A stretch of DNA of 64,000 nucleotides from a virus: IMG/VR virus record IMGVR_UViG_3300049491_000955, positions 1 through 64,000 of that record; one strand, given 5' to 3'. The first letter of the stretch is position 1. Each line of letters opens with the position of its first letter. Below, piece after piece: positions 14,538 through 60,763 of this stretch. The notes below the pieces were generated by a model. That model made no database searches. It saw only the letters and a list, made by a program, of their open reading frames with translations, and had not been told where the DNA came from. The position numbers and the translations under genes are program-made.

Positions 14538-14550
14538 TCTGGTCTTACCT

Positions 14551-43300: not shown

Positions 43301-46300
43301 CTTCAAAAGTGTTTGAAAGAATAGGTCGTTTTGTCGGACAAGGTTTTAAGCAAGGTTTAGATACAATAGGACAAATCAATTTTAAGCAACTCTTTCAAGA
43401 TTTAATCGATTCTCCTGCTGATTCAATAGATAAATTACTTGGAAATTTCTCTAAACTTTCTGGCGCGGCGAAAGCAATCGCTGTTGCTTTTGCAGGATTT
43501 ACTGTTTTTCAGCTTTTTGGATCTCAATTAATAGATTTTGGTAGATCAACTAGTCAGGTTGCAAGTAATCTAGAAAATCTAGAACGACGCATTAAATTTG
43601 TTTCTAACAGCAGCGCAGACGCCAATAAAAACTTAGAATTCTTCCGTGGTAATGCCAAACGCTTAGGCTCTGATATCTCTACATCCTTGACTCAAGGTGG
43701 AGCCTTTGCCGCAGTAACCCGTGGAAGCTCTTTAGAGGGCGATCCAACCAGAAGAATAGTAGGAGCCGTTCAACAAGCTTCTACTGTCTTGGGAGCAACC
43801 CCAGAGCAACAAGAACGCGGTTTGTTAGCACTTCAACAAATGGCAGGAAAAACAATCGTATCTCAAGAAGAGTTACGACAGCAATTAAGTGAGGCTATTC
43901 CTGGTGCAGCGCAAGTGGCGGCAAGGGCTTACGGGTTGACTACCCAAGAAATGAATCAACTGATAGAGAAGGGTCAGATTCTTGCAGAAGATTTTCTGCC
44001 AAGACTAGCACAACAATTATCAATCGAGACTTCTGCTGGCTTGCCCGGCGCGCTCAAAACTTCCGTTTATGCAATGGGTCGCTTTAAGAATGCAACATTA
44101 GAAGCTCAAGAATCAATTGGCAAATTAGCTTTACCATTGCAAACATTCTCTTTAAATGTTTTGAGTGGCGGAATTGAAAAACTTACGGGTATGCTACCTC
44201 TACTGATAAACGGTTTTCAGTTCTTTATTCTGCTCATTACAAAACCTTTTTGGTTCCCAATTATTCAAGGCTTATTCTCAATACAAGCAAATACATTACT
44301 TACAGGAATATCTTTCAAAACATTGGGAGCAAGTATTGCAACTTTCTCTGCTACCGCTCTTACTGCATTGGCTCCTTTGTTACTTCAGTTCTTAGCTTTT
44401 GAAGCAGTTATCTTGATATTTTCTGCGCTAAAAGAACAGTATCAAGACTTCGCTTCAAGCATTAGAGATAATACTAAGCAGATTAATCAATCTATTGATG
44501 AGCTAAACAAATCTTTAAACAAAGTTGGGACAGGAGCCGCTAAGCCTCTTGCTGGGAATACTGAAGAACTTAGGCAGCGATTAGCTTACGAGTATAACGA
44601 TAAAATCCAGAAAAATCCTTTCTCGGTTTTCTCAACTACTCGTGTACCTGTTCAGATAAAAGAACTTGAAGATTATTTGTCAGCTTCCAAAGAACTGTTA
44701 GCAACCTCTCAAAGATTAAAGAAAGAATCAGAGTCATCTACGTCAACAAAAGCTATCAGTGATCTAAAACTTTTGGATGCAGAATATCAACGTGTCCAAA
44801 ATAGACGCAGAGGATTAGAGGTCAACAATCCTGGTGATGCCAAAGGGCGGGAAGCTTTAATAGCGCAAGAACAAGACTTGCTTAGAAAACGCGAAGAAGC
44901 AAACAGGACTCCAACAACTTATCAAACGGCTTATGCTACTCAGGCAAAAACAATCAAAGATTTGATTGAGCTTATGGAGGAGCAGAAGAAAAAAGGTGTT
45001 GTTACCGCAGAGAGCGAAATTCAATTACAGAAACTTAAGAAAGGCTTGGTTGAAGTAACAGAAAAACAAGAGTATTTTGCAAAATCTACCCGTTCATCTC
45101 AAAGCAGTCTGCTTGAATTTGAGCGCAGTTTTGCAAGACTAGATGCTTCCTTGGAGGGAACAAAGTCTAGGCTTGAATCTCTATCCAATATATCAAAAGT
45201 TACTTTGCAGTCTCAGGAAGCTTCTGGGGCAATCACGCCTGGGCAAAATGCGTTCACTGACTCGCTAAAACAACAAGAGCAGATATCTAAACAAGTTGCT
45301 GCAAACATCTCTGTTATCCGTCAGAAATACGCAGAGTTGAACAACCAAAATGCGTTGCAAGTATTAAATGACTTAGGTATTGACAAAAACTCAACTTCTG
45401 CCGAACTTAAAGGAAGAGCGGAAGAAAATCAAGCCAATCCCCAAGTCAAATCAGTCCTCGAAAAACTTGCACAAGTTAGGGATTTAGAAGCCGAAACATA
45501 TAGGCTAAATGCTCAACAAGCAGAACAACAAAACAATCTTGTTAAGCAAATATACGATTCAAATAAAGCCGTCTTAGAATACTATCAATCAATTCAAAGG
45601 CAGACTCAAGAGTTAAGTATTGCAGCCCAAGAAGCAGCCCAGACAATTAAATTAACTAATGTTAAGTCTAAATTAAAAGCAGCAATTTCGGGCACTCAAG
45701 ATAATTTTGTTAACCAATTTGTTGACTCTATCGTTCAGATAACTGAATCTTTGGGACAGATTGCTAATGAAGAAATCCAAGCTAAACGCCAAATCTTACA
45801 AAATGAAAACGCTTACAAAGACATCATTAAACAAGGCGTTGACCTAAATCGAAATCTTCCAGGACTAGCGCCGGGTGCAACAGTTGGTAGCTACACTGGA
45901 GGCTACAATCAATCTCTAGTCTTTCCAATAGGAGGAAGAAATAATTCTACTATTAGTAGCGGTTATGGCGATCGCGTTCATCCGATAAGCGGCAAACACA
46001 AGTTTCATGATGGTGTAGATTATCCCGCGCCAATTGGCACGTCTGTTGTTAGTCCAATGGCAGGTGTTGTTGTTGGGGTCAAATATGAAGCTCGTGGCGG
46101 AGGTAAATATGTAGTTATTGAATCGCTGGATTCCAAAGGGCAGAAAGTAGAGCATACTTTTATGCACTTAGATCAGCAGATGGTGAAAGAAGGACAACAA
46201 GTAGCCGCTGGGCAACAAGTAGGAACTGTCGGCAATACTGGCGGTTCAACTGGTCCACACTTGCATTACAGAACTAGAATCAATGGGCGATCTGTAAATC

Positions 46301-48627
46301 CTATTGATTTCCTGAAATCTGGTACTCTTGGAGCCGGTGGCGGAGGCGGACAAATTCAAACTTCTTCTCCTAGTCCTTATACTGGCAGCACCAAAGCTTC
46401 TTTCTATGGCGCAGGAGATGGATTTGATGGGAAGCCTACAGCTAGCGGGGAAACATTTGATCAAAATAAAATGACTGCTGCTATCAACGAAACCCTTCGT
46501 AAGCAGCTTGGACTAAATTTTGGCACTCAAGTTCAAATCACAAACCCAGCTACCGGACAATCCGTCGTTGTCCGAGTGAACGATCATGGCCCATATGAAA
46601 AAAAAGGAGGAAAGTTTGTTCCCCACAGTACTCGCGGCTTTGATTTAAGCACGTCTGCCGCGCGGGCGATCGGTTTAGACAAGGTTGGCGTAGGCAATGT
46701 AAACTTCCGTGTACTTGGGCAAGGCGGCGCAACCGGTTCTCCTAACTTGAATAACTCTAGAGCTTATTCTTCTGCCAGTGGTTTGGCACAAGGGCAATCG
46801 AATCCTGGTGGTGTAATGATTGGCGCAGGAGGGAAAGTTGCTTTGGATAACTTGAATCAACAGAATGCCCAAGTTATTGCCAAATTTGAAGGAAGTCGGA
46901 AGCTTGCCCAACTTGATGCCGAAAGAAACGCTCGCCGTGCTCAGTCTCAATTAGAAACTAATCGAATTGAAAATCTTCGTAGTACAAAAGCTACACAAAG
47001 AAATTTGGAAGATTCCAGCTTGGGACTGGGCTATCAAACTTATGGAGTCGAAGCGACTCGACAAGCGATCGCAGTTGAACGCAAGTATGAAGATCAGGTA
47101 CAGCAACTTCAAGAGCAACGCGTCAAACAGCAAGAAGCAATAGATACTGCTGAAAGTACTTTGGCTGTGCTGAGATCTAGTACAGACGCAGAGATACCTT
47201 ACAGAAAAGAATACATTCAGAAATTAGAAAAACTTCTTCCTTCTGTTAAAGCAGTTTTGGGACAGATTAACAAACAAATTCTTGATAGCGCAGAAGCAGA
47301 AAGCAAAGAGATTGGAGATATAGAAAAGAAAAGCTATGAAGCTGAAATGATTCGCTTGGGCGAAGCAAAGGACAACTACAGTCAAGGTAGATCTGAAATA
47401 CTAAAACGTAATGCCGCCAATCGACGCACTTTAGCAGAAAGAAGTAGATTAAGTATTCCTGATTTGTTTGCTACTTTGGATGCAGAGAAAGAAGCAGCAT
47501 CCCTTGATGCTAGTGTCGCTTACAACTCAACCATTAGGGCTATTGATGAGCAAATAAAAAAAGAAATCAACAAAGATATTCTTAAGTTATTAAACAGCAG
47601 AAAAGCTCAAGCCTTTGCTTCTTTATTAAAAGCTCCAAGGGAAGCTCAGCAACGCTTTGATCGAGAACTCCTTGATAGACAACTTACAGAAAGAGGAGAG
47701 CACGAAGGACGATTAGATAAAATTTCTGAGTCTAGAAAATCTCTTTTATCGGCTGGCTCTCAATACTTAGGTCGATTCAATCTTGGCACAATTGCAAATC
47801 CTCTGAACAAGAAAATTGCTCAGATGGGTGCTGAGGATGAATATAGAAGAGGCTCACTAGAAATAGAGCAATTAGCAGCCTCTGGTAAATATTCTAATGA
47901 GCAATTATCCGAGCTACGCAAGAATCTAGAAAGCTTGAATACTATCAAGCTGGAAAATATTCGGGCTGAATTTGATGTATGGACTGGGGTAATGGAATCG
48001 ACTAAAGGGCAATTTGAAGGCTTCTTTGGCAGTATGATTCGAGGAACTGCAAGCATTGGAGAAGCTTTTTCAAATCTTATTGGCGGTATCGCTGATAATC
48101 TTGCCAATCTTGCAGCCCAATACCTAACCAATGAAATCTTTGCTTCTATATTTGGGATTTCTAATAAGCCAGCTATTCAAGAATCCGGAGGAGGTGGATT
48201 ACTTGGCGGAGGAATTGGTGGCATACTTGGCGGATTACTCGGCTTTGCTAATGGCGGTGAAATTGGCAATTATGCTAATGGTGGGATTATTGGGGCGATG
48301 CAGCGTGAACGGGCAATGACAGGGCGACGCGCTCACTTAATTGTAGCTTCCGAAGGAGAGCGTATTCTAAATCACAAAGAAGCGCAGATTTGGAATAAAA
48401 TTACCGGGAGGCTTAATTTTGCTTCTGGTGGCATGATCGGAGCAGACGCGGGCACTCTTTCTGCTAGCGCTGGCGTTGGTGGGGGACTTACAATCAATGT
48501 TCCAATAAATGTTGGCAGTGAATCCAAAGGTGCTTTTGATAAGGGCAAAGAAGCCGCCCTTAAACAAGCAATTATCGCTACAGTCGTAAACGAAAGGCGT
48601 CCAGGTGGCAGTTTATACCAAGTTTAA
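40342..48627 (+). CDS. Tape measure protein (2761 aa) with alpha/beta-hydrolase-like, M23 peptidase and RlpA-like domains
   Basis: N-terminal LGTLEI; IQSPSKVF; tape domain ALQQMAGK..VSQEELRQQL.E..PGA; HDGVD...HLH (M23); ASFYG..F.G.PTASGE.FD...VRVND.GP (RlpA); FANGG repeats. Confidence 0.93.
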   Translation: MDLGTLEINFIGSFQQLDRDIARAKTIATQAAKEIESSFKNTNFKITVNDSALSSLNKHLDFKKIHFQQVQQYFNQNPLTVKVDDTSLTKLNKELDIITKQRDVVVNVKANIRQEAELVGTEVGQQVKKSLSNSFKGLGKEVKDAVSLNSGITLGIGQLFGSMLGSQMISGLKRNLGVDVKAAIGSIFDTAAKPLKVFVVDNQDLKASINKAGVLLEERFESAGYKVGEAIIASLESKASTIEGKFNAFTKELIDPNKFQSQLSTLKKDIVDISSDVKGSLFNKQASQEFFGGLGEKISSRREKGLQTRAVPLVRERALQILEENKARNSANAVTSETEQIYIATGGYAGARGLSGKRLAGDLKKQISANDLAIWVKNDDTDLPKEAMSKAKEKAIALMTSMAKPHLRGYSKDAIEMAAQAMAALEKNPNVKVKFLGESGGGFAAEEAEKIVSLMGYGQKADYLGVGTPQFIGGLDSRNRKIISPDETLGAETHKMYAKLGLANVSSSQQNILGVFGHPYENYKEAGIAELQNFIQGMPKRFTSEDISGAKGAAQAFKAHDLKKLDSKQLEKFSEQAFANLQMIRRQILVATTETRQELEEIAKDFEDVYVASAPESREFTQARETIAKAQNIYKHLVPQAGLAAAKVGQELAKELESHQKEFAKVGGQYSGTYGRKYQSINSEMSDLIAKLQATELGVKKAEVKIPLTIPNVPEKAFVEQSAKQVSQAVAETAKQVIENTKKEIVKAQQTSPNTDKIKTQIAAIQEAIKKSQGYLAGTPELSSAYIDTILKVVPEIQKQLNEAIQSLPTEERMSSELGVQLANLKSQIPSMQKRVAEIVKNLNKDITRVASGEPKDSIKSLGNVFTEQLRTAKQFGQGSTQGDALAKDVLAATEKARQSISDLLVSFGQDVPEVIKKAAKIARQQITTSEKGAKTFLGEAKTAGLDTGAGFNEGLKQSIANVQKSAQAMAQIAIDVTEETLEIQSPSKVFERIGRFVGQGFKQGLDTIGQINFKQLFQDLIDSPADSIDKLLGNFSKLSGAAKAIAVAFAGFTVFQLFGSQLIDFGRSTSQVASNLENLERRIKFVSNSSADANKNLEFFRGNAKRLGSDISTSLTQGGAFAAVTRGSSLEGDPTRRIVGAVQQASTVLGATPEQQERGLLALQQMAGKTIVSQEELRQQLSEAIPGAAQVAARAYGLTTQEMNQLIEKGQILAEDFLPRLAQQLSIETSAGLPGALKTSVYAMGRFKNATLEAQESIGKLALPLQTFSLNVLSGGIEKLTGMLPLLINGFQFFILLITKPFWFPIIQGLFSIQANTLLTGISFKTLGASIATFSATALTALAPLLLQFLAFEAVILIFSALKEQYQDFASSIRDNTKQINQSIDELNKSLNKVGTGAAKPLAGNTEELRQRLAYEYNDKIQKNPFSVFSTTRVPVQIKELEDYLSASKELLATSQRLKKESESSTSTKAISDLKLLDAEYQRVQNRRRGLEVNNPGDAKGREALIAQEQDLLRKREEANRTPTTYQTAYATQAKTIKDLIELMEEQKKKGVVTAESEIQLQKLKKGLVEVTEKQEYFAKSTRSSQSSLLEFERSFARLDASLEGTKSRLESLSNISKVTLQSQEASGAITPGQNAFTDSLKQQEQISKQVAANISVIRQKYAELNNQNALQVLNDLGIDKNSTSAELKGRAEENQANPQVKSVLEKLAQVRDLEAETYRLNAQQAEQQNNLVKQIYDSNKAVLEYYQSIQRQTQELSIAAQEAAQTIKLTNVKSKLKAAISGTQDNFVNQFVDSIVQITESLGQIANEEIQAKRQILQNENAYKDIIKQGVDLNRNLPGLAPGATVGSYTGGYNQSLVFPIGGRNNSTISSGYGDRVHPISGKHKFHDGVDYPAPIGTSVVSPMAGVVVGVKYEARGGGKYVVIESLDSKGQKVEHTFMHLDQQMVKEGQQVAAGQQVGTVGNTGGSTGPHLHYRTRINGRSVNPIDFLKSGTLGAGGGGGQIQTSSPSPYTGSTKASFYGAGDGFDGKPTASGETFDQNKMTAAINETLRKQLGLNFGTQVQITNPATGQSVVVRVNDHGPYEKKGGKFVPHSTRGFDLSTSAARAIGLDKVGVGNVNFRVLGQGGATGSPNLNNSRAYSSASGLAQGQSNPGGVMIGAGGKVALDNLNQQNAQVIAKFEGSRKLAQLDAERNARRAQSQLETNRIENLRSTKATQRNLEDSSLGLGYQTYGVEATRQAIAVERKYEDQVQQLQEQRVKQQEAIDTAESTLAVLRSSTDAEIPYRKEYIQKLEKLLPSVKAVLGQINKQILDSAEAESKEIGDIEKKSYEAEMIRLGEAKDNYSQGRSEILKRNAANRRTLAERSRLSIPDLFATLDAEKEAASLDASVAYNSTIRAIDEQIKKEINKDILKLLNSRKAQAFASLLKAPREAQQRFDRELLDRQLTERGEHEGRLDKISESRKSLLSAGSQYLGRFNLGTIANPLNKKIAQMGAEDEYRRGSLEIEQLAASGKYSNEQLSELRKNLESLNTIKLENIRAEFDVWTGVMESTKGQFEGFFGSMIRGTASIGEAFSNLIGGIADNLANLAAQYLTNEIFASIFGISNKPAIQESGGGGLLGGGIGGILGGLLGFANGGEIGNYANGGIIGAMQRERAMTGRRAHLIVASEGERILNHKEAQIWNKITGRLNFASGGMIGADAGTLSASAGVGGGLTINVPINVGSESKGAFDKGKEAALKQAIIATVVNERRPGGSLYQV

Positions 48628-48839
48628 TCTTCTTCTTCTTCTTCTTCTTCTTTGCAGTCTTTAAGAATTATTTCAAATTCTTCAATAGCAATAATTGCCA
48701 TTTTTACGCAAGCAACTTCTTGAGGATGCGTAGCAGTTTGCATTTTGTAATTATCAGAAACGTGATAGCCTTGCACAGCATAAAATTTCTTCGCAAGTCT
48801 TTCAATCAACAAATCTCTGTAAAAAACTCCTAATTCCAT
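48624..48839 (-). CDS. Small protein, paralog of 49141-49371
   Basis: LIERLAKKFYAVQGY...MQ.A......CV.MAIIA. Confidence 0.7.
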   Translation of the reverse strand: MELGVFYRDLLIERLAKKFYAVQGYHVSDNYKMQTATHPQEVACVKMAIIAIEEFEIILKDCKEEEEEEED

Positions 48840-48974
48840 CGCCCCCCCTCTTTTTCTTTTCTTTTTACTACTATAACTCATAATATCTCTTTTAGTAATA
48901 CCTTAGTCAATATTCCTTTGTGTAGCGAAGTAAGTCAACCTCTACAGGGTTTTCGTCATTTTTGCCCTTCATTT

Positions 48975-49151
48975 TTAAGTTTTTTGCGTTAGTTGATCAA
49001 TCAAATTTTTAGCTGCTTCAAAAGCTTCTTTTTCTGAGTCAAATCCCGTAACATATTTATTTACTGCTTTTCCCGTGATATAGGAAGCGTACTTGTTATT
49101 TTTTTCTGTGATAACAATGCTGAAATTTTTGTGTGTTGTTTTAGCAAACAT
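48975..49151 (-). CDS. Small hypothetical protein
   Basis: MFAKTTHK...GFDSEKEAFEAAKNLID. Confidence 0.6.
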   Translation of the reverse strand: MFAKTTHKNFSIVITEKNNKYASYITGKAVNKYVTGFDSEKEAFEAAKNLIDQLTQKT

Positions 49152-49371
49152 TTTTAATTTCCTCTTTTTCCTCTTCTTTTTCTGTACAATTTTCAAGAAT
49201 TACTTCAATTTTGTTAACGGCAATAATTGCCATTGCTACGCATCTGCGCCTTTCTCGACTTTTAGCACTTTGCATTCTGCAAGTAGGGGGAGCATAATAA
49301 CCTTGCACTTTATAAAAGTCTTTAGCTAGCTCTTCAATTAATGCATCTCTTTCTGCGGATTCTATTTTCAC
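49141..49371 (-). CDS. Small protein, paralog of 48624-48839
   Basis: LIEELAKDFYKVQGY...MQSA......CVAMAIIA. Confidence 0.7.
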   Translation of the reverse strand: MKIESAERDALIEELAKDFYKVQGYYAPPTCRMQSAKSRERRRCVAMAIIAVNKIEVILENCTEKEEEKEEIKNVC

Positions 49372-49431
49372 AATTTTTCTTTTTTCTTTTTTCTACTATA
49401 ACCCATAATATCTCTTTTAGCAACACTTTAG

Positions 49432-50880
49432 TCAATATTCCTTTGTGGGTGGCTTATAGTGAAGCAGATCAACCTCTACAGGGTTTTCGTCGTTTTTGCC
49501 TTTCATTTTTAAAGTTCCTTTTCCGCTACCCACTGTTTCGCCCATCTTGTCAGTAGTTGAAATGCAATCGATGCGTGGGCAAGAATCGATTAACTTGGAG
49601 AAGCCAGCTAGCTTGGAAGAAATACTAGTTTGATTCATGGAATGAGCAGTGAGAACTCCTGTGTATCCCCACTTCCTAATGTTGGTAGTCATTTGTTTTA
49701 GGAAAGTAGCCCAGACTTTAGGATCAATATTGTGAACTTCGTACGTATTGGCCTCACAAAGTACGATCGCAACTCTACCTTTTAGTCCTGTTTTGTCTTT
49801 CAAGTAATCCAAGTAGTCATCTTCATCGATTTCTTTTTGGCGAGCTTCGTCTTGGCGATCGCGTATGCTCTTTGGAAAATTGCTCATAAATTCATTGATA
49901 GAATCGATGTCCGACAAAACTGTTACCCCTGCCATTGTTTCCGTAGCAGCCGCACCTTTTCTAATTGTTTCAGGATTGATAACTACAACATGGTGTCCCA
50001 TCTCCCGCAACAAGTCGATGGCCAATCTTTCTAATGTAGATTTACCGCTACCTTGTTCCCCAGAAAGAACTTTAAAGGGCATTTTGAGTAATTGGTATAT
50101 CCATTGATGCTTTTGAGCTAATTGAATTTTCCCCGAACTAGACTTGCTGTCTTTAATCACTTTCTCTTCTGCTTTCTCTAAATCCAGTCTTTTTTTGTCA
50201 GCTTTGCTTTTATCCCTAAAGTTTTCAGCAATTTTCTTATCAGCATCTGAATGGGCAACAGCACGATTTTTCAAATAATCTTCAAGTTGTAATCGTCCTT
50301 TAGCTTGTTCGTTTTCTGGATCAGTTAATCCAAGGTGTATGCGTTCTTCCGTATCTTGTGCTGTTAGTCCATCTTTTAATCTATCTGTGTACAACGCCCT
50401 CGAATGAGCTTTGGTCTCCCGATAATGCTTGTTATCTTCCCAAGTTCCATAGCCATAAGTTTTTTCTTGCTCATTAAGTTGGTAGTCTGTTTCATTTAAT
50501 CTCTGCAATCGAAAATACATTGTTAATGCGGCTCCCCATAGTCCAGCGACCGCAAAACTTCCGCCAAGTAACTGATTAGGATTGTCTGTTGGCAATGCCA
50601 TGACTTCTTGAATTGAATTGCCTTTGTAAGGAATTTTACTACCATACATGCCGTACTTCTTCCATTCTTCGGTGAGCACATAGCGAGGTTTTACGCAATA
50701 CTCTTTGTTGATAACTATCTGCCCTTTTTTACCACTGGCAGACTTAGGACAGAATTTAATTTGAGTTAGATCATAAGCTTGAGTTGTTTGAGTAGCTACA
50801 AAACCTGTCACTGAAACAACTCCGCAAGCTAGTATCACTCCAAATTCAAACAAATTAGTTTTAGTTTTCTTCTTTGTCAT
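49432..50880 (-). CDS. Membrane-anchored FtsK/HerA/VirD4-like P-loop ATPase
   Basis: Two N-terminal TM segments; GEQGSGKST; VVVINP; degenerate Walker B IVLCE; RKWG...VLTAHS. Confidence 0.7.
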   Translation of the reverse strand: MTKKKTKTNLFEFGVILACGVVSVTGFVATQTTQAYDLTQIKFCPKSASGKKGQIVINKEYCVKPRYVLTEEWKKYGMYGSKIPYKGNSIQEVMALPTDNPNQLLGGSFAVAGLWGAALTMYFRLQRLNETDYQLNEQEKTYGYGTWEDNKHYRETKAHSRALYTDRLKDGLTAQDTEERIHLGLTDPENEQAKGRLQLEDYLKNRAVAHSDADKKIAENFRDKSKADKKRLDLEKAEEKVIKDSKSSSGKIQLAQKHQWIYQLLKMPFKVLSGEQGSGKSTLERLAIDLLREMGHHVVVINPETIRKGAAATETMAGVTVLSDIDSINEFMSNFPKSIRDRQDEARQKEIDEDDYLDYLKDKTGLKGRVAIVLCEANTYEVHNIDPKVWATFLKQMTTNIRKWGYTGVLTAHSMNQTSISSKLAGFSKLIDSCPRIDCISTTDKMGETVGSGKGTLKMKGKNDENPVEVDLLHYKPPTKEY

Positions 50881-51187
50881 CTTTCAAATCCCAAAAATTA
50901 ATTAATACTTTTTCTGCAACAGTTTCTCCTACTTGATTCCAAAGAACATTTTGTTCTTGGATTTCTGGAAAGGCAGACATTGAATTTATAGTTTCAAAAC
51001 AATTGAAATCAATCCAAATTAATTCGCCAAGTTCAGCTAATTCTTGTTTTTCAAGAAAATGAGGATTTACTATATACTCTTGAATTCTTTCTTGAATTTG
51101 TTCTCTGCCACTTTGGTTGTACTTTAACTGATTCCAAAGATTTGAAAACCATAAAACAACTTTAGTTGTGTCGCTGTATTGATTCAT
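50861..51187 (-). CDS. Hypothetical protein
   Basis: Overlapping member of the operon. Confidence 0.65.
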   Translation of the reverse strand: MNQYSDTTKVVLWFSNLWNQLKYNQSGREQIQERIQEYIVNPHFLEKQELAELGELIWIDFNCFETINSMSAFPEIQEQNVLWNQVGETVAEKVLINFWDLKDDKEEN

Positions 51188-51420
51188 TTTTCTGCAACTT
51201 TAAACAAAAGAACAACCATAAAAACAGTCATCGAAAGACAAATGCCAACGCTTAGCCAAGGATAAAGAAAGGGATATTGACCATAAATAACTGCAAGATT
51301 AGAACTGAGTCTATATATAAGATCGTCAACAATTTGGCTAAAAAATACGTAATCTAATTTAAAAAAAATAATAGCTGTTGCTGTTGTCAAGATTATTTTT
51401 AAAAAATTATTGTTTCTCAC
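51184..51420 (-). CDS. Two-TM membrane protein
   Basis: Hydrophobic segments; 4-nt overlaps with neighbours. Confidence 0.65.
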   Translation of the reverse strand: MRNNNFLKIILTTATAIIFFKLDYVFFSQIVDDLIYRLSSNLAVIYGQYPFLYPWLSVGICLSMTVFMVVLLFKVAEK

Positions 51421-51953
51421 TTTCTAAAAACTCCTAATAGTAAAACAAGTGCGATCGCACCAAGTACAGCAAATCCCCAAGCACCAGCCCACGCATCAGA
51501 GCGAGGTTCTTGCTTTTCAAAGATTTGAATATCTTCAGCAATTTCATGAATAGTAGTGTTTGTGATATCTTGAAAATATCGGTAATCTTGTCCAGCTAAA
51601 TAAGTAGTGATTGCCGAGCTACCCAAACCAAACACAACTTTGACAGTACTTTGAGCATTATCAACTTCTAGTCCTTCTCCAGCCTTGTAGTTTACTCTAA
51701 AATTGGTCAATCCTGAAAGCGGAACTACGGCACAGCAAGTAAAACAAAGGCTAATTGCTAACCAATAGTTTACTCCTCCGCCCAAAAGCAATAAACCTTT
51801 AGCAAGGAAAAATCCGGTAGCATTCATCGACCACCCCACAAGATATCCAGTAAGCTTCCCTGTTGTTCCGATGACTTGTTTTCTGTGTAGCTTTCTCTCT
51901 TGTAAGTGCTCTGCTAAATCTTTTGGAAGAAGAGTGTCTGGAGCATATTCCAT
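51417..51953 (-). CDS. Multi-pass membrane protein
   Basis: About 4 TM segments; probable start MEYAP at 51953. Confidence 0.7.
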   Translation of the reverse strand: MEYAPDTLLPKDLAEHLQERKLHRKQVIGTTGKLTGYLVGWSMNATGFFLAKGLLLLGGGVNYWLAISLCFTCCAVVPLSGLTNFRVNYKAGEGLEVDNAQSTVKVVFGLGSSAITTYLAGQDYRYFQDITNTTIHEIAEDIQIFEKQEPRSDAWAGAWGFAVLGAIALVLLLGVFRK

Positions 51954-52062
51954 TATTTCTTCTTGCTCTGTCTGTTGCTCGTTTAATGTATACATGTAAT
52001 AATAATCCCAGTGTAAACATATTTTGTTTGGCAGCTTATGCATAAAGCTGCCAATTTTTTAA

Positions 52063-52737
52063 CTAAAAACCAAAAATAAAATCTTTGATTTTTCCAACTA
52101 CATTATTACTTGCGTAATTTTTTTTGGGCTTAAAAGCCTCTACAGCTTGATCGCCTTCTGCCAGATAATAATTACCCATCTCTTTGTTGTGCTGAAGATC
52201 TACTGTTTGTTGCTTAATTGGAATTCTCAATTCTTCTTTAAGCAATTGATAGTCTTCATCAATAGTAGTCATATGAGCATCAATCCAAGCTTTAAGTTCA
52301 AGTCTCTTTGCTGTTCTCTCATGTCTAAGCTCTTCCTTCCTTTGAGAATTCTCAAAGTCGGTTTGCATTTCATCCAGAGCATTGACGAGACTTGTATCTT
52401 CTAACGTGGCAGATTGAATTGCTCTTTCAACTGCTTTGCCGCTAACACCTGCTTTCTTGTAGATTTCGGAGAGAACAAGATTTAAATCTTCTTGTCCTTG
52501 GATAGCTGCAATCATTTGGTCTTTTACTTTGGGAGCAAATTCACTAATTCTTGCTCCGTCTATACCCATCTGCCCAATTATTTTTAGAGCTTTTTGATCA
52601 CCTGTAAGAGCACTAATGATTAGTCCTTGGGACACTCCTGTATTCAGTCTTAGTTGGGCTTGTAAATTGCGGGTTTTTCCTAAAGTTACCCTGTTTTTTA
52701 GCTTCCCAATATGTCCGGCACTTTTCTTTCCAAGCAT
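52063..52737 (-). CDS. Helical / coiled-coil hypothetical protein
   Basis: Operon member; amphipathic C-terminus KIKDFIFGF. Confidence 0.75.
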   Translation of the reverse strand: MLGKKSAGHIGKLKNRVTLGKTRNLQAQLRLNTGVSQGLIISALTGDQKALKIIGQMGIDGARISEFAPKVKDQMIAAIQGQEDLNLVLSEIYKKAGVSGKAVERAIQSATLEDTSLVNALDEMQTDFENSQRKEELRHERTAKRLELKAWIDAHMTTIDEDYQLLKEELRIPIKQQTVDLQHNKEMGNYYLAEGDQAVEAFKPKKNYASNNVVGKIKDFIFGF

Positions 52738-52903
52738 CTATATATACCTCGCTACATTCGTAATCCATTCGTCGCATATATGCATCAAGTTGAGTTTGAT
52801 GCTTTTCTTCTCTTTTAAAATTCTCGATACTCACTAGTGGCAAATATATAAAGTAATGAGTACCGAGAATCAAGCTTGTCAATCCTGTAAGCAAAACAGC
52901 CAC
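52613..52903 (-). CDS. Small single-TM protein
   Basis: Fills the operon gap; start uncertain. Confidence 0.45.
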   Translation of the reverse strand: MAVLLTGLTSLILGTHYFIYLPLVSIENFKREEKHQTQLDAYMRRMDYECSEVYIDAWKEKCRTYWEAKKQGNFRKNPQFTSPTKTEYRSVPRTNH

Positions 52904-52928
52904 CGGTCTTACAGGATTTTTTCTTCTG

Positions 52929-53624
52929 CTACTGCTTAAATCTTGCGGAGATTTCGGCGAAAGCTGTGGTAAGTTCTTCGCCGCAGCTTTTGTAATCGTT
53001 GGTCGATTCCTCCATTGCTGAAGAAAAATTATTCAGCAATCCAACTACGTTGCGATCGCTTTCGTCAATTGTTTGGTACAAAGATTGAAACTGTGATTGA
53101 ATGTATTTTTCTTCTTCTGCTAAATAAGTTTTGATTAAGCCAAGCACATGAGTAATCATCTCTCCTCTGCTTGTGCAATTAGCAGGAATGCTTTTTGCAA
53201 TTGTTTGAATCTCTTGCTTGTGTAGTTTCAATCCACCTTTTTGCAAAGTCGAACCTACAATTTCTAGCTTTTCAGATTCTGCTATTAATTGAATTTCTCC
53301 TTTAAGCTCAACTGGCTCAACTTGTTCGGGTTGGATTTCTTCTGGCTGAATCTCAAAACTTAAGTTTTCTTCAGGCTTGATTAAACTTTGGGAGACGGTG
53401 CTTAGTCCACTAGAAGGAGAAATATTTTCTTTTGATTCAAACTTAAGCTTTTCTACTATTTCTTGCATTTGTTCTTCTGTTGGCTTTTCTTCTGCACTGT
53501 TAATCACTGTGTAATATGCCTCTTTGATTTTTTGATAGCTTTTAATTATTTCGTAATTGCGCTTCAGTCTAGATTGAATTCTTTTAAAGTAAATTTTTTC
53601 GTTGTTGTGAAGCTTTTCAGACAT
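52929..53624 (-). CDS. Coiled-coil hypothetical protein
   Basis: ORF track; operon member. Confidence 0.75.
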   Translation of the reverse strand: MSEKLHNNEKIYFKRIQSRLKRNYEIIKSYQKIKEAYYTVINSAEEKPTEEQMQEIVEKLKFESKENISPSSGLSTVSQSLIKPEENLSFEIQPEEIQPEQVEPVELKGEIQLIAESEKLEIVGSTLQKGGLKLHKQEIQTIAKSIPANCTSRGEMITHVLGLIKTYLAEEEKYIQSQFQSLYQTIDESDRNVVGLLNNFSSAMEESTNDYKSCGEELTTAFAEISARFKQ

Positions 53625-53625
53625 T

Positions 53626-54048
53626 TTAGTTACCTCTTGTTTTTTCTTTGTACATTAAAGCTTTGATTGTGATTTCAAACAGATCTTTTCCTAAATAAAA
53701 GTTACTTGCTTTAAATCCACCAATCTGTTTGAACCACCTAGATAATGTTGATTGCGACGGTTGTAAGTCAGATAAAGACAAATAATTTAAAAATGCTTTA
53801 CCAGAGTAGTATTGCTCAAAAGATAAATTTGCTCGGTGCTTTAATATCTTTTCTTTTGCGTTTGCTAATCGTTTTATACGTCCATTAGAAATCTTGTTTA
53901 GTCTTAGATAAAGAATTAAATTTTTTTCGGTTAGTTCTAGCTCTAAACTTTCCAAAAAAGTTTTTACTCTCCACCATTCCGTATCACTTGATCTTGATTC
54001 AATTAATTTTTCATACCTTTCTCTCTCCTTAGAGATTGTTATCGTCAT
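53626..54048 (-). CDS. Basic DNA-binding protein (wHTH-like)
   Basis: YSGK.F...L....QPSQSTLSRWF...G; start MTITIS at 54048. Confidence 0.65.
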   Translation of the reverse strand: MTITISKERERYEKLIESRSSDTEWWRVKTFLESLELELTEKNLILYLRLNKISNGRIKRLANAKEKILKHRANLSFEQYYSGKAFLNYLSLSDLQPSQSTLSRWFKQIGGFKASNFYLGKDLFEITIKALMYKEKTRGN

Positions 54049-54509
54049 TTTTCTTCTCCTTTTCTTTCCTTTTCTCCTAATACAAACTTCTTTTTTTGCC
54101 GTATTACGTATTACGCATGTAATGCCCTGCATTTATGCTTTTTTTAGTATGCATGTACTGTTTTTGAGTATATATGCTTACTAAAAACCCTTAAAAAAGA
54201 CTGCATGTATTACGCACTGTCCATATTTAGGCTTAATATATGAGCGGTGTAATACAGTTTTTCCTGACTGCACTGCCTGAAACTCTTTAGGAGTAAGCTT
54301 ATTCACAATTCACAAGTGATGAATAAGCTTGTTTTTACCCCTAAAAATTTACCTTTTTTCTAAACCCTTCTTTTGACCGACAGAATCGCTGTAACGAGGT
54401 GGCAGTAACCATCGTGCATCTGCACGGGCAGGTTTTTGACGTTCTGACATCGATTCAAGCTGAAACAGGTCAATCATCAATCTTTTCCTTTATTTACTGT
54501 TAGCTGAAA

Positions 54510-54791
54510 TTAGTTGCCTAGAAGAACAGAATAAAGACTTTCCACTACTTTGCAGTTAACATGATTGCTTGGCGAGGTCTTGCAGTAATAATTTGCATTC
54601 ACCAAGTAACTGCCGAAAGTTAATAGTCCTACTCCAGTAAGCATGATTCCTAGTAGATGAGGAACAAACCCAAATCGTTTTTTGAAATTATCTCGTTCTT
54701 CTTCTTCTGGATCATAATTATTTCCCGCTTCTTGCCAAGTGATAAATTTGCCGTCGTAGTAGAATCCACCTTTCTCTTTTTTATTGCTCAT
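54510..54791 (-). CDS. Small single-TM protein
   Basis: One TM segment and a CxnC tail. Confidence 0.6.
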   Translation of the reverse strand: MSNKKEKGGFYYDGKFITWQEAGNNYDPEEEERDNFKKRFGFVPHLLGIMLTGVGLLTFGSYLVNANYYCKTSPSNHVNCKVVESLYSVLLGN

Positions 54792-55020
54792 GGCTTATTC
54801 TCGCTGCTAATCTTGCTTGTTTCTCTTCTTCTTTTTTCTCGTGCATCTGCTGGAGTTGCATTATCCCTCCTGTTGTCAACAATCCCAATCCGACGTAACC
54901 CGCTATTTTTCCTCCATACTTTTGAGAACCAAAATAACCCAATCCTACACACCCAATCAAAAACAAAAAGAATAATGCACTGTTTTTTGCTGTTCCTAAA
55001 CTTACTTTTTTCTTTGCCAT
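54781..55020 (-). CDS. Small two-TM protein
   Basis: MAKKKV... with two hydrophobic helices. Confidence 0.6.
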   Translation of the reverse strand: MAKKKVSLGTAKNSALFFLFLIGCVGLGYFGSQKYGGKIAGYVGLGLLTTGGIMQLQQMHEKKEEEKQARLAARISHEQ

Positions 55021-55192
55021 TTTATTCACTGCGTGTATTACCTGCTCTCTTTCTTTAATATAAATGCACGGGGGTGCAACTGTCAAGTAAGTGCACCTCT
55101 GTTTTTATTATTTCTTAATGATTAAGGGTGAAAGACTGATTCTGCTGTACATTAAGATTGAGGTGCAAGAACAAACAGAAGGATGCAAAAGG

Positions 55193-55531
55193 ATGCCAAG
55201 GCAGCCAAGAATTTACTATATATTGAGTGAAGAAAATTTAGGCAAGCTAAAAGCTTTGGCAGAGAGTGAAGGGCGATCGCTCTCCAACCTTACCGGGCGA
55301 TTTGTTGAGGCTGCTTTAATTCAATCCAGTATTCCAGCCGTTGAACCAGGGCAACTAGATCAGACAGAGGAAGTTATTAGATTTCTAAGAAAGTTGGCGC
55401 AAAGTGATCGCCCTTCAGATTCAGATTGCATTCTTGCCGCACACGACGCTGGAATCCAAGAGGAGGATCTAATTCAATTACGCGATCGCTTATTCACCAA
55501 GGAGAAAAACGGAAATGGCATTGCTCACTGA
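55193..55531 (+). CDS. RHH/Arc-like regulator
   Basis: PRIYYIL.EE...KLK.LAE.EGRSLSNL....VE.AL. Confidence 0.75.
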   Translation: MPRQPRIYYILSEENLGKLKALAESEGRSLSNLTGRFVEAALIQSSIPAVEPGQLDQTEEVIRFLRKLAQSDRPSDSDCILAAHDAGIQEEDLIQLRDRLFTKEKNGNGIAH

Positions 55532-56153
55532 TTTAAATTTCGGGCGTGCTCACATCAGTTTGCGGGCCAGTTCAAAAAATCAAGCCAAACAGTATGTCCG
55601 AGAAGCTACTGGATGGAGTCAACAATTTAAGCAAGATATTTATATTTTCTATCCGGGCAATCCGCGCCCTTATAGAATCCCAGTATTGAATTCAGAATTA
55701 AAAGAAAAACAGATGACTAATATTTTATTGCCTGGAATCCAGATTGCAGAAATGCAAATCTCTTTGCCTTTACTCCAAGTCTTTAGCGAGTTCTTAGAAT
55801 ATCCAGATCGCAAGTCTGGTTTAATTCGGTTGCGAGATGATCGCCAAATTGCTGTTTCAAATTCTAGTCGAGTTTTGATGAGAGATGGTGACTTGCTTCG
55901 CGCAGTCCAACGCCAACGCTCAGATTATTGGTACTTACCAGATTTGGAATTGATTACACAACGAACTCGGCAAGAACTTGAGCCAAACAACCCCAACAGT
56001 TTCTTTGAATTTAGTTGGCGTTCTCCTGGCAAATCAGAAAGTCCTGAGTGGCGAAGATATACCAATCAATACAGACTTGTCTCTGATGCCTTTGGCGAAC
56101 TCTACCAAGTCTCTAACAGCTTAGGTTTTGATGTAGTTGCACCCGTCGTTTAA
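55515..56153 (+). CDS. Hypothetical protein with PAS-like C-terminal domain
   Basis: GLIRL.DD.Q...S.S...SDYWY.PDL......L...FEF.WR...W..YT..YRLV. Confidence 0.6.
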   Translation: MALLTDLNFGRAHISLRASSKNQAKQYVREATGWSQQFKQDIYIFYPGNPRPYRIPVLNSELKEKQMTNILLPGIQIAEMQISLPLLQVFSEFLEYPDRKSGLIRLRDDRQIAVSNSSRVLMRDGDLLRAVQRQRSDYWYLPDLELITQRTRQELEPNNPNSFFEFSWRSPGKSESPEWRRYTNQYRLVSDAFGELYQVSNSLGFDVVAPVV

Positions 56154-56180
56154 GCAGATTTTAACCGCTGCTATTTTTTT

Positions 56181-56399
56181 TTGAAAAAAACAATTCTTAG
56201 TTGCGATCGCTGTAAGAAAGACATCAGCTTTTTTGATGAGCAGTTTAACGAATTTCTGGCTCAAGAATATCCGGGGTTAGACATCTGCGCTGATTGCGAC
56301 GGGCTTCTAGTTTTGGCGTCATCTTTGCAAACTCATGATTTGATTCGTGGAAACAAGCAGGGAACTGCTCTGAAGAAAATGTTGGAGCAATACAGTTAA
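56181..56399 (+). CDS. Small zinc-binding protein
   Basis: CDRC...CADC. Confidence 0.6.
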   Translation: MKKTILSCDRCKKDISFFDEQFNEFLAQEYPGLDICADCDGLLVLASSLQTHDLIRGNKQGTALKKMLEQYS

Positions 56400-56689
56400 G
56401 CCAGTGCTGAGAAATACCTTTTCGCAGTCGCATCCTCCACAACCTCTCCCAACACTACCTCTCAAAAAACCACACGATTCCATTTCTTACTTTTTGCTTA
56501 CTTTCCATACCAGTAAAAAAAACGCACCTACAAAACGTAAGTGCGTTTAAAATCAATCTTACCAATAGCAATACACAAGACAATAGTATTTCTTATTTTT
56601 TAAACGCTTCTCTATCAACAAAACTTATCTATACTTTTTTGAGAAAGTAGTATTACAATAGAGACACACTGTCTAAGTTGTGAACAGAG

Positions 56690-57025
56690 ATGATCGCAGA
56701 TATACGAATTCAGCACGAGCTAAAGACATGGAAGGAATCTTTTTACTATATTGTTAAGGGAAAAAAACTGGCAGAAGTCCGGAAAAATGATCGTGATTTT
56801 CAAGTTAATCAACGATTAATTCTTTGTGAAGTAGACGAAGAAAATGAGTATCTACCTACTGGAAACAGAATGTCTTTTCGCATCAATCACATTATTTATC
56901 TCAATGACTGGATTCCAATACTAAAAAGCAAAGAGGAATTATTGGAAGAATATGTAGTCTTGTCTTTATACTTTGTTGGAAGCCACCTTCCCAATCCACT
57001 ATTATTTAAACCAAACTTGTTGTAA
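56690..57025 (+). CDS. DUF3850 / ASCH-domain protein
   Basis: HELKTW...F..I..G.K..EVR.NDRDFQV...L.L.E......TG....I..I...YVVLS. Confidence 0.88.
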   Translation: MIADIRIQHELKTWKESFYYIVKGKKLAEVRKNDRDFQVNQRLILCEVDEENEYLPTGNRMSFRINHIIYLNDWIPILKSKEELLEEYVVLSLYFVGSHLPNPLLFKPNLL

Positions 57026-57085
57026 AATATCAGAGGGAAACGCGGGAGCTTGGTTCTGTCGCCTGCCGTGACTCGGAACGACTAC

Positions 57086-57136
57086 AAAAACAAAAGACGA
57101 TCGCATTCTACACTCGTGCGATCGTCTTTTGTTTTC
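57086..57136. terminator. Hairpin with HIP1-like arms between convergent genes
   Basis: AAAACAAAAGACGATCGCA-N11-TGCGATCGTCTTTTGTTTT. Confidence 0.65.
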
Positions 57137-57246
57137 AATTCAAATATTCTATTGCCGTCCAATCTTGGAATTCTACATTTACTGTGGGAGCGATCGCCCC
57201 AATTGGAAAGAAAAATTCTGCCAGCAATGCTCCAATCAAAAAGTAG

Positions 57247-58644
57247 CTAATTCCTTTGATCAAGATATATTTTTGGTCTTTCAAGCGTTCCAGAAAACTT
57301 TCCATCTTCCCATCCTTCAAAATATTCTCGATCCTCTACAATTTCTATTCTTTCCTCATCAGTCATCAGTAAAATCTCTGTTTTTGTATACACCACATCG
57401 CCACAACTGTCCTCAAAAGCAATATCTTCTTGATGTTCTATCTCTTTTTCTTTCCAAGATTCTAATTCCGTCTGTATCCTTTCCATAAAAATTTCTTTCT
57501 CTTCATCTGTTTCTACTCCACAGTAATAGCTAAAGAAATCTTTCTCATCTATAAACCCTCTCGTAGCATAGTTAATAGCCTCAAACGCCTGATTCAAAAC
57601 TTCAACTTTCTCTTTCTCTCCTCTCTGATAGTAAGGTTCATAATAATCTTCCAAGTTCATCCCTGACTCTTTCGCTTCTGTACTCAACTCAGGTAAAAGT
57701 TTTTCCCCTAAATGTGCCAAAGCTACCAGTCTTCTTATGTCTTTTGGAAAAGCTTCCATCATCATTGTTGAAGCAACAGGATTATTGTGATCAATGACAA
57801 TAAAATTTTCCCATTGCTCTGCTGTCATTCTTGTTATCACTTCCATCTCTTGAATTGTCTCTATCAACTTTTCGTGAAAAATCTTGTGCAACTTAATATC
57901 ACACATCAATTTCCTAATCATGTCTCCAAAGTAAATTTGTACCCAAGTCGAATCCATCTGTTCACACTCTTTCTCCGCATGATCTGTCAGCCTCAGCCGC
58001 TCTTCTCTCATCTGTTTGATCAATCTTCTGTATTCTGCATATATCACATCGTATTTCTCTCTCCATCCCTCTTTAAGCTCCAATTGTACGTCTACTTGAT
58101 TGGAATAGTACTGTGTCGCTTCCTTCTCTCTCATCAAGTGATGCTCATAAAGCTTTATATCTTCTTCCAATGCAGCTAATCTCTGTTCCGTCACTGCTCG
58201 ATGATCATCTAACTGGATAATTGCAGTGCGATCGCCCCTAAACTTTTGATAGCCTGTCATATCATAAATGTATGCATCTAACCCCAACTTGTTTGTCCTT
58301 CTAACCGTTTCAATTGCTTGCTCCGTGCATCTCTTCCCTGCTCCTCCTGGCTTGCTGTCAGTATAGTAAGAAAGAACTTCACTGGCTAAATCAGATGAAA
58401 TAATCATTGCTTGCCCCTGTCTCCATTGCTGATCAGAATCAAAATATATTTTTTCAGGGTTCTCAACAAACTCTTGAAAATATTTAGGCATTCTTGGTGT
58501 TTTAGCTACTATTTTTTCAATCCAACTGTTTAAAGCTGTATGACTTACTCCAGTAAGATTTGCAAGTTGTCTCAAGCTTAATCCTGCTTTCCCTGTTTCT
58601 TTTTCAGTAAAAAATCCTTTGCTTTTGTCAAACATTAAAGACAT
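57247..58644 (-). CDS. DNA-binding protein: N-terminal HTH, coiled coil, acidic C-terminus
   Basis: TGKAGLSLRQLANLTGVSH.AL..W...I.S.LAS.V..YY...GL..YI...TGY. Confidence 0.7.
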   Translation of the reverse strand: MSLMFDKSKGFFTEKETGKAGLSLRQLANLTGVSHTALNSWIEKIVAKTPRMPKYFQEFVENPEKIYFDSDQQWRQGQAMIISSDLASEVLSYYTDSKPGGAGKRCTEQAIETVRRTNKLGLDAYIYDMTGYQKFRGDRTAIIQLDDHRAVTEQRLAALEEDIKLYEHHLMREKEATQYYSNQVDVQLELKEGWREKYDVIYAEYRRLIKQMREERLRLTDHAEKECEQMDSTWVQIYFGDMIRKLMCDIKLHKIFHEKLIETIQEMEVITRMTAEQWENFIVIDHNNPVASTMMMEAFPKDIRRLVALAHLGEKLLPELSTEAKESGMNLEDYYEPYYQRGEKEKVEVLNQAFEAINYATRGFIDEKDFFSYYCGVETDEEKEIFMERIQTELESWKEKEIEHQEDIAFEDSCGDVVYTKTEILLMTDEERIEIVEDREYFEGWEDGKFSGTLERPKIYLDQRN

Positions 58645-59878: not shown

Positions 59879-60763
59879 ATGACTATTTATTTTGTACAAA
59901 ACGAAAGAACAAAAAGCATAAAGATTGGATATACCAAAGGTAATTCTTCGGATCGATTAAGAACACTTCAAACAGCGTCTTGCGAAAAACTTTGTTTATT
60001 AAGTCAGATAGAAGGGGATATATTTTTAGAGAAACAATTGCATATTTTATGTATTGATTATCAAATTATGCTTGAGTGGTTTAAACCAGAATGTTTGTCT
60101 GCTTGTGAAAATTTTCTTAAAAAGCCAATAATCTTATGTTGTTATGAATTTGAAAAAGATTCTAGCTCAAATATTAGACCAAAAGAGAAATTCAGAAGAA
60201 CTAGAACAAGTAGAATAACTAGAGAAATGATGGACAAAAGTTTATTTAGTTTAGAGCAAGCTGGATTTGTCGAAGTTTTGGGTTACGAAGGTCTGTATTC
60301 TATAAATAAAAAAGGAAATCTTTTCTCTCATAAAACTCAGATATGGATGAAAGGATGTCAAAGATCTGATGGTTGCATGTGGGTTGGACTAACAAATTCT
60401 TCTGGTGTAACGAATAATCACAGAATCGCCAGACTGGTTTTATCAACTTTTGTTGAGCCTCGTCCTAAAGGCGATAGAATCATTCACCTTGATGGAAACA
60501 CACTTAACAACAACCTAGAAAACTTATCTTGGTGCTTTGGTGCTTTTATTCCTTGTTCTTTACCAGGTGGATCAAAAAGAAGGAATCACGATACAGATCG
60601 ACTAACAGATCAAGACGTTAGAGACGTTTTTTGGTTTGTCAGTACGAATGTACCTCGAAAAGAAATTGCAATTATGTATGGGATAACAGAACGGCACGTT
60701 TCCAATATTCAGGCTGGAAGAAGACGCTCCAAAGCTTTAGCAGGAATACATTCTTTTGGTTGA
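59879..60763 (+). CDS. Composite homing-endonuclease-like protein (T5orf172/GIY-YIG + NUMOD4 + HNH + HTH)
   Basis: IYFVQ...IKIGYT...RL..LQT; GYEGLYSIN..G; HRIARLV...F...IHLDGN.LNN.LENL.W; LT..DV...IA..YG. Confidence 0.8.
   Translation: MTIYFVQNERTKSIKIGYTKGNSSDRLRTLQTASCEKLCLLSQIEGDIFLEKQLHILCIDYQIMLEWFKPECLSACENFLKKPIILCCYEFEKDSSSNIRPKEKFRRTRTSRITREMMDKSLFSLEQAGFVEVLGYEGLYSINKKGNLFSHKTQIWMKGCQRSDGCMWVGLTNSSGVTNNHRIARLVLSTFVEPRPKGDRIIHLDGNTLNNNLENLSWCFGAFIPCSLPGGSKRRNHDTDRLTDQDVRDVFWFVSTNVPRKEIAIMYGITERHVSNIQAGRRRSKALAGIHSFG

Follow-up and report, generated by a model that had tools for sequence, protein, structure and literature searches.

What would a tailed phage do with an operon of small membrane proteins that ends in an FtsK-like ATPase? 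The question is raised by the viral record IMGVR_UViG_3300049491_000955 (IMG/VR; 82,081 bp, completeness estimate 69%), of which the first 64,000 nucleotides, referred to below as the window, were analyzed. Here ten co-oriented open reading frames (ORFs) on the minus strand run from 55086 down to 49432, the last of them encoding the ATPase, and all ten frames are open (g1 to g10; Table 1). An earlier note, made from the sequence letters, had described these genes as nine membrane-related and soluble proteins followed by the ATPase, and had suggested that they move a phage-plasmid between cells or along filaments without virions; the ten ORFs are present as it listed them. The interpretation that we favor, with a probability of roughly 0.45, is that the region is a plasmid-type DNA-translocation module that was acquired by a tailed phage of heterocyst-forming cyanobacteria, and it is by inference that we extend this to movement of DNA from cell to cell.

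The motifs attributed to the ATPase (GEQGSGKST, IVLCE and RKWG..VLTAHS) are all contained in its translation. Invariant across 55 relatives are G274, G277-K280, E376 and R402, the last being the putative arginine finger, and H413 shows conservation of 90% or more; the Walker B motif reads IVLCE and lacks the usual Asp before the Glu. Because Walker A, E376 and R402 are invariant in these 55 sequences, the ATPase is probably enzymatically active. An AlphaFold2 model built from the 55 relatives (mean pLDDT 78.6) contains, in order, a helix (residues 5-30), an alpha/beta unit (38-96), a helical hairpin (103-241) and a RecA-like domain (250-482), and the features that define the HerA-FtsK superfamily (RecA-like core, Walker A, a catalytic Glu in Walker B and a conserved Arg) are all found. 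In fold, residues 251-482 come closest to TcpA (PDB 6o1w-6o1z), an FtsK-like coupling protein encoded by plasmid pCW3 of Clostridium perfringens. Two values were obtained for each system in the fold comparison: 16.5 and 16.4 for TcpA, 15.7 and 15.3 for FtsK, 15.3 and 14.6 for EssC/EccC, 12.4 and 11.9 for HerA, 12.2 and 12.0 for VirB4, and 11.6 and 11.7 for the RAD51 type, with the second value alone for DndH (12.4), TrwB (11.6), Cag-beta (10.1) and DotL (9.8). These values place the modeled ATPase in the FtsK clade of the HerA-FtsK superfamily and not with the VirD4 type; with this fold, and with catalytic residues conserved in 55 sequences, the protein does not fall into a non-translocase family. 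A profile search of 1.84 billion representatives returned 444 relatives at an E-value of 0.001 or better, and in a scan of 71 sequences (the window ATPase and 70 more distant relatives) 41 matched DUF87/HerA, 11 AAA_10 and 3 FtsK_SpoIIIE (best E 2e-4).

The ATPase had been described as carrying two transmembrane (TM) segments. By hydropathy the first is strong (residues 10-28, score 2.08) and the second is weaker (104-122, score 1.37), the latter coinciding with the start of a long helix in the model (103-182). The loop of about 75 residues between them holds Cys44 and Cys62, both at least 90% conserved, and two conserved cysteines at this place would fit a loop that lies outside the cytoplasm.

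Set against known translocases, the ATPase resembles TcpA in having N-terminal membrane helices followed by an FtsK-like domain. It differs in sequence (13-16% identity; profile E-value 0.39, over the P-loop region alone), in the hairpin of about 140 residues between membrane and ATPase domain, and in its host, here a diderm cyanobacterium. Tcp loci also encode the VirB4-like TcpF, the VirB6-like TcpH, the VirB8-like TcpC and the hydrolase TcpG; beyond the ATPase, no Tcp counterparts were found in the phage locus. From the FtsK/SpoIIIE beta motor (PDB 2ius, 6t8b) the phage protein is set apart by the lack of an alpha or gamma domain, by its IVLCE Walker B and by the lack of a PF01580 (FtsK_SpoIIIE) match at E-values up to 1. 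With VirD4/TraG/TrwB (PF02534) it shares a two-TM anchor followed by a P-loop ATPase, but it has neither a T4SS-DNA_transf match nor the all-alpha-domain fold of TrwB. The fold is compatible with a type VII-like role, in which the ATPase would act as EssC/EccC do and the cargo would be small proteins rather than DNA, and both the several small membrane proteins alongside the ATPase and the small acidic ORFs beside its gene in the phage would suit such a role. We consider this improbable: the phage ATPase has one domain, as opposed to the three-domain chain with FHA of the matched EssC/EccC chains, no WXG100-type match was found among the ten proteins, conservation of the module does not extend to g9 or the small acidic ORFs, and the setting elsewhere is the backbone of small plasmids, beside replication and mobilization genes.

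The extent of the conserved unit was assessed from the surroundings of relatives in plasmid records and genome contigs, in which plus-strand ORFs were clustered; loci that are short or have just a C-terminal fragment at their end (L023, L029-L031) were left out of the synteny table, and L001 duplicates L028 (same plasmid). The order c3 (g3), c4 (g4), a small TM protein (g5 slot), c2 (g6), c1 (g7) and ATPase is complete in 19 of 26 rows, or 18 of 25 distinct loci, and the window keeps the same six-gene order. One of the other seven rows is cut at the locus start, two hold partial sets and four have variant ATPases with other neighbors. When the phage proteins were searched by tblastn against 30 related loci, g6 was found in 17, g3 in 7, g7 in 6, g5 in 3 and g4 in 1, and g1, g2, g9 and the divergent pair in none; g8 gave weak matches in 5, every one inside the g7 homologue (C-terminal TM). 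Judged from these comparisons, the conserved unit is a set of six genes that are inherited together, and g1, g2, g8 and g9 are additions of this phage. The first two lie upstream of a 377-nt gap, and the other two, as insertions, separate g7 from the ATPase gene; on plasmids the g7 homologue directly precedes the ATPase gene, with stop and start overlapping in the annotation. The proposal that the operon is conserved as a unit thus holds for the core and not for these four genes. The longer variant ATPases (L024, L025 and L026, and contigs C5 and C7-C11 of genome G062; open frames of about 593-626 aa) have the ATPase domain alone in common with the core type, sit among other neighbors and reach up to seven copies per genome.

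The 39 plasmid records with a match to the ATPase come exclusively from Nostoc, Calothrix, Tolypothrix or Microchaete and are mostly of 25-60 kb; 29 were typed as mobilizable, 10 as non-mobilizable and none as conjugative. Tolypothrix sp. PCC 7601 and Nostoc sp. ATCC 53789, two genetically tractable strains, both carry homologues, in the former on a plasmid of 37,441 bp. In samples defined by the taxonomy of the host genome G001, the ATPase was detected in 82 of 201 genomes of its family and 8 of 201 of its order (E-value limit 1e-20 for both), and in 30 of 401 genomes of its phylum (limit 1e-5); all 18 phylum matches at 1e-20 or better recur in the match list of the family sample. Named members of the family are all heterocyst-forming genera, and named matches elsewhere belong to Nostocales genera, the remainder being metagenome-assembled genomes. 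Up to seven diverged copies occur per genome, on different contigs and usually one per small replicon. Such a distribution in heterocyst-forming cyanobacteria is typical of a function that belongs to the plasmid backbone, and the co-occurrence with cyanobacterial plasmids and filamentous hosts that the earlier note had proposed as a check is borne out. No ATPase match was found in phage records, and among the other viral contigs of the collection 595 pattern matches yielded no confirmed relative.

On these plasmids the module keeps company with mobilization genes. On one complete Nostoc plasmid, of 33.9 kb, the module is accompanied by a large PriCT-2 replication protein, ParA, ParB, toxin-antitoxin pairs and a tyrosine recombinase; MobC and a relaxase lie some 10 kb away from it, and neither a coupling protein nor a type IV secretion system (T4SS) is annotated. 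Across five multi-replicon genomes, a PF03432 relaxase was found on 14 of 22 ATPase-bearing contigs, and, other than C1, 14 of 15 relaxase-bearing contigs carry the ATPase. Coupling proteins of PF02534 were found on C1-C5 and, among the 22 ATPase contigs, on just 2; where ATPase and relaxase occur together, 13 of the 14 contigs have none, and no AAA_10 match exceeded the cut-off in the same five genomes. In the 201 genomes a relaxase was present in 62 of 82 with the ATPase as against 44 of 119 without it (odds ratio 5.3), and at least 31 contigs with both were counted among the matches listed. The plasmid relaxases are of the MOBP type. Since relaxases co-occur with the ATPase on replicons that mostly lack PF02534, the data suggest that the module ATPase plays the role of VirD4-type coupling proteins.

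The earlier note had drawn its analogy from Streptomyces, in which TraB, clt and Spd proteins spread plasmids. The likeness is conceptual, and in part it stands: a single membrane-anchored FtsK-like ATPase with small membrane partners, on plasmids of filamentous hosts and without VirB4 (the TraB side of this comparison draws in part on a review, PMC4379921). A relaxase-independent machine of this kind, which would pass double-stranded DNA of phage or plasmid between filament neighbors without virions, could account for the FtsK-clade fold with membrane anchors, for the co-inheritance of small membrane partners with the ATPase, for a phage that has no relaxase, MobC or VirB4 and for the 10 of 39 plasmids that are non-mobilizable, and it would agree with the concentration of the family in the heterocyst-forming group (82 of 201 genomes, versus 8 of 201 in the order). 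We nonetheless hold it doubtful, because the C-terminal winged-helix DNA reader of TraB is lacking, no clt-like repeat array follows the gene in core-type loci, and many plasmid copies share their replicon with a relaxase, which is unexpected for TraB systems; this sharing points to relaxase-coupled rather than TraB-type transfer. A downstream 8-mer was present at least three times in 3 of 23 loci, namely two variant loci and the window, where it belongs to the window's own duplication; in the two variant-ATPase loci the 8-mer occurs four times within 500 nt 3' of the gene.

The plasmid setting also bears on two further readings. In one, an FtsK-like pump acting at septa as they close would remove or share out plasmid copies for the daughter cells, as the plasmid-backbone location, the copies on different contigs of one genome and the restriction to filamentous hosts would allow; it has a poor chance, given that module plasmids also have ordinary ParA and ParB, that they are shared with relaxases and that the phage has no other plasmid maintenance genes. 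In the other, the module would serve conflict, by blocking or expelling incoming DNA (superinfection, entry exclusion) or in competition between plasmid and phage. Its place in the accessory region of the phage, between tail and regulatory genes, and weak RecD-like PADLOC matches (E 2e-6 to 2e-5, residues 215-319 only) speak for this reading; against it, no defense family was matched at a meaningful level, the replicons are again shared with relaxases, and many diverged copies per genome on separate small contigs fit a replicon-specific role better. We rate a conflict function as quite unlikely.

How the module stands in the phage was examined through its linkage, its ancestry and the rest of the record. 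An independent assembler produced a contig that covers 44000-58620 with zero differences, and the link between tail gene and module is therefore real and no assembly artefact; the run concerned is possibly the source sample. The stretch is present in three metagenome runs of two studies (one run possibly being the source sample), and no RNA run is listed among them. In the ATPase tree, which was midpoint-rooted for drawing only and built without L001 and fragments shorter than 430 aa, the phage protein lies inside cellular diversity, where it groups with contigs of Tolypothrix and Spirirestis and one Nostoc plasmid in a clade of 100/100 support. This nesting among plasmid and cellular copies, together with the lack of a confirmed relative in other viral contigs or phage records, is what one would expect of a passenger that recombination brought in from a plasmid and that is of no use to the phage. 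Such an origin without function is nevertheless very improbable in our view: all ten frames are open with catalytic residues intact; the phage ATPase has diverged to 55-59% identity from its nearest plasmid copies with synteny kept; an 82,591-nt contig retains the ATPase (89% identity), g6 (94%) and the divergent 212-aa protein (90% or more); and the phage-specific g8 and g9 were inserted in frame-coupled fashion with 4-nt overlaps.

The record itself carries siphovirus-type genes, virion genes among them, and the module occupies an accessory region with tail genes on one side and regulatory genes on the other. In the whole 82-kb record no match was found to a PF00589 integrase, PF01656 ParA or PF02195 ParB, nor to a PF03432 relaxase, PF05713 MobC or PF03135 VirB4, in agreement with the first description, which saw no relaxase or VirB set. 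As to the name "phage-plasmid", the sole plasmid-like replication feature is the C-terminal half of a 1316-aa protein, which is 24-28% identical to CyRepA1 plasmid replication proteins, and since this half is equally similar to helicases of Nodularia siphophages, phage-plasmid status is not established. Joining the two record ends did not give a continuous gpJ frame, so circularity is not established either; the 82-kb record is probably a permuted genome minus a short piece.

We return to the reading of a plasmid-type translocation module and to how it might work. Ring formation and ATP-driven pumping of DNA are established for FtsK, TcpA and TraB. In this reading two helices anchor the 482-aa motor in the cytoplasmic membrane, with the Cys-bearing loop outside and the hairpin and RecA-like ATPase inside, and by analogy it would form a ring that pumps DNA with ATP. 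The five co-inherited partners (g3, g4, g5, g6 and g7) would recognize the DNA and build the membrane part. On plasmids the module is most likely the coupling motor of transfer, which would deliver relaxase-bound DNA to export, because relaxase and MobC are often co-resident and a VirD4-type coupling protein is usually missing. In the phage, candidate cargoes are the phage DNA, the DNA of a co-resident plasmid, or incoming DNA. A bolder version, that the module is the long-suspected transfer system of cyanobacterial plasmids, a VirB4-less machine restricted to heterocyst formers which uses one FtsK-like membrane motor with four or five novel partners to pass DNA between filament neighbors and was captured by the phage for virion-free spread, we regard as unlikely.

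Several observations weigh against a translocation module. The ATPase passes no curated model (Pfam, PHROGs, PADLOC, NCBIfam), and PDB sequence and profile searches with it match P-loop stretches only. The ATPase core runs to the end of the model (residue 482), a DNA-reading domain like FtsK gamma or that of TraB is lacking, and in core-type loci no repeat array lies 3' of the gene. No partner has a recognizable fold or family, and for crossing the diderm envelope neither a VirB4-type ATPase nor any other part of a channel can be seen. The association of ATPase and relaxase at genome level is confounded by plasmid load and relatedness, and the relaxase link is not obligate, being absent from 8 of 22 ATPase contigs, from 10 of 39 plasmids and from the phage. 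The curated scans also returned sub-threshold matches of the ATPase to Zeta_toxin (20 bits, cut-off 22.3) and to RecD-like models (residues 210-319), which were set aside.

Table 1. Positions of the module genes and of other features (window coordinates unless the record G000 or the locus L045 is named; aa, amino acids).
Feature	Position	Strand	Description
gpJ-like gene	1-1020	minus	truncated by record start
Tail protein L	1022-1702		
1316-aa protein	5324-9274		C-terminal half (about residues 555-1290) CyRepA1-related
Mu-like portal	9369-10697		
Small and large terminase	13932-16032		
2761-aa ORF	40342-48627	opposite to module	single ORF, ends beside module; probably tape measure
Tandem duplication	48624-49512	minus	start-to-start about 525-534 nt; directly downstream of ATPase gene
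g10 (ATPase)	49432-50880	minus	482 aa, membrane-anchored, FtsK-clade by model
g9	50861-51187	minus	108 aa, acidic, soluble; specific to this phage
g8	51184-51420	minus	78 aa, two TM segments (hydropathy); inserted relative to plasmids
g7 (family c1)	51417-52043	minus	membrane protein, about 190-208 aa, about four hydrophobic segments
g6 (family c2)	52063-52737	minus	224 aa, helical, soluble; best conserved partner
g5	52613-52903	minus	96 aa, one TM, Cys pair in tail
g4 (family c4)	52929-53624	minus	231 aa, acidic, helical, variable middle linker (alignment)
g3 (family c3)	53626-54132	minus	basic, net charge +21
Gap between g2 and g3	54133-54509	minus	377 nt; 17-nt inverted repeat at 54141-54187
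g2	54510-54791	minus	93 aa, single TM; specific to this phage
g1	54781-55086	minus	small protein, one clear TM (hydropathy); specific to this phage
Divergent pair	55091-56153	plus	146-aa ORF and 212-aa protein
DUF3850/ASCH-domain protein	56690-57025		just past the divergent pair
294-aa protein	59879-60763		resembles a homing-endonuclease-type gene
Match to 5-hmdU DNA kinase	L045 10439-11380 (G000 74439-75380)		helical domain
gpJ-like tail gene, other record end	G000 79155-82016 (L045)	minus	

The ten genes are mostly tightly packed or overlapping, as had been noted, except at the gap between g2 and g3: from g1 to the ATPase the spacings are -11, +377, +1, +25, -125, +19, -4, -4 and -20 nt. The listed TTG start of g1 overlaps the -35 box of a promoter-like site (55086..55057, 11 of 12 matches), for which reason the real start is probably an internal ATG near 55020; a promoter and terminator scan of the region gave no excess over shuffled sequences (19 sites versus 19.2, and 7 versus 5.9). 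The gap may be a control region of the conserved core. Upstream of g3 homologues, inverted repeats were in excess of shuffled controls in no more than three loci (the window, L015 and L008), and no claim is drawn from them. For g2 there is a weak match to phrog_2947 (E 0.0014). Across Pfam, PHROGs, PADLOC and NCBIfam the nine partner proteins gave no family match, with sub-threshold hits only.

The true start of g3 is likely M29 at 54048. Its AlphaFold2 model (pLDDT 83.5) predicts two helical domains of about 65 aa, each with a W/F-centered motif, and in a fold search its matches lay within noise. PDB sequence and profile searches of g3 and g6 returned nothing or helical-repeat noise, and a PDB sequence search of g4, labeled coiled-coil in the earlier note, gave weak helical-repeat matches only. 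ESM Atlas searches with g6 and g3 reached cyanobacterial or Bacteroidota clusters only (scores below 0.9, TM-score below 0.5) and offered no lead. The alignment of g6 has 12 invariant columns, and a search for a longer fused form of g6 found none, which is weak evidence. In other loci the g5 slot is taken by varied small single-TM proteins with a membrane segment and a Cys pair as their only common features, and the overlap of g5 with the next gene is likewise annotated on a RefSeq plasmid. By hydropathy g7 has two strong and two weaker segments. A complex of g7 with ATPase residues 1-140 was predicted at a score of 0.54, as opposed to 0.01 for the best of three controls, with at least 93% contact agreement between runs and a partner pLDDT of at least 68. 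The prediction was classed as weak support, a mark that 58 of 80 solved complexes and 2 of 110 mismatched pairs attain. Scores up to 0.60 comprised just 7 of those 80 solved complexes plus both passing mismatches, and the prediction was not counted as evidence.

Of the divergent pair, which the earlier note had labeled RHH and PAS-like, the 146-aa ORF has an RHH_5 match below the Pfam cut-off (22.6 bits versus 26, E 8.9e-5) and the 212-aa protein has no Pfam match. Downstream of the ATPase gene the tandem duplication consists of three repeat families (D1-D3, 78-90% identical), and in each unit a remnant of the ATPase 3' end is joined by a small acidic ORF, the two such ORFs (48624-48881 and 49141-49371) being paralogues; the second copy of the ATPase end, at 48916-48984, matches residues 455-480 at 87% identity. 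Between the two units there is a 73-aa basic ORF. Elsewhere in the record, the match to the helical domain of 5-hmdU DNA kinase is strong (E 2e-43) and suggests thymidine hypermodification in the phage DNA. The 294-aa protein has four Pfam matches, T5orf172/MUG113, HNH_3 and NUMOD4 among them, of which three are below the cut-off, and the DUF3850/ASCH-domain match has an E-value of 1.1e-15.

Small plasmids of heterocyst-forming cyanobacteria often have a relaxase and no known coupling protein or T4SS. In the portions considered here, a plasmid survey (PMC8600333) counts 24 Nostocales plasmids with a relaxase and without VirB4 or VirD4 and does not mention FtsK, and a review (PMC4379921) relates the proposal that cyanobacteria conjugate by an as-yet-uncharacterized system. 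We found no published description of the module in the literature searched; the supplementary tables of PMC8600333 may list these plasmids. Given its presence in 82 of 201 genomes, the replicons that it shares with relaxases and the TcpA fold of its ATPase, the module is a concrete candidate for the missing transfer machinery. Its intact presence in a tailed phage raises the question of a virus that uses plasmid-type DNA transport. Should the function prove to be a different one, five uncharacterized protein families would still gain their first phenotype.

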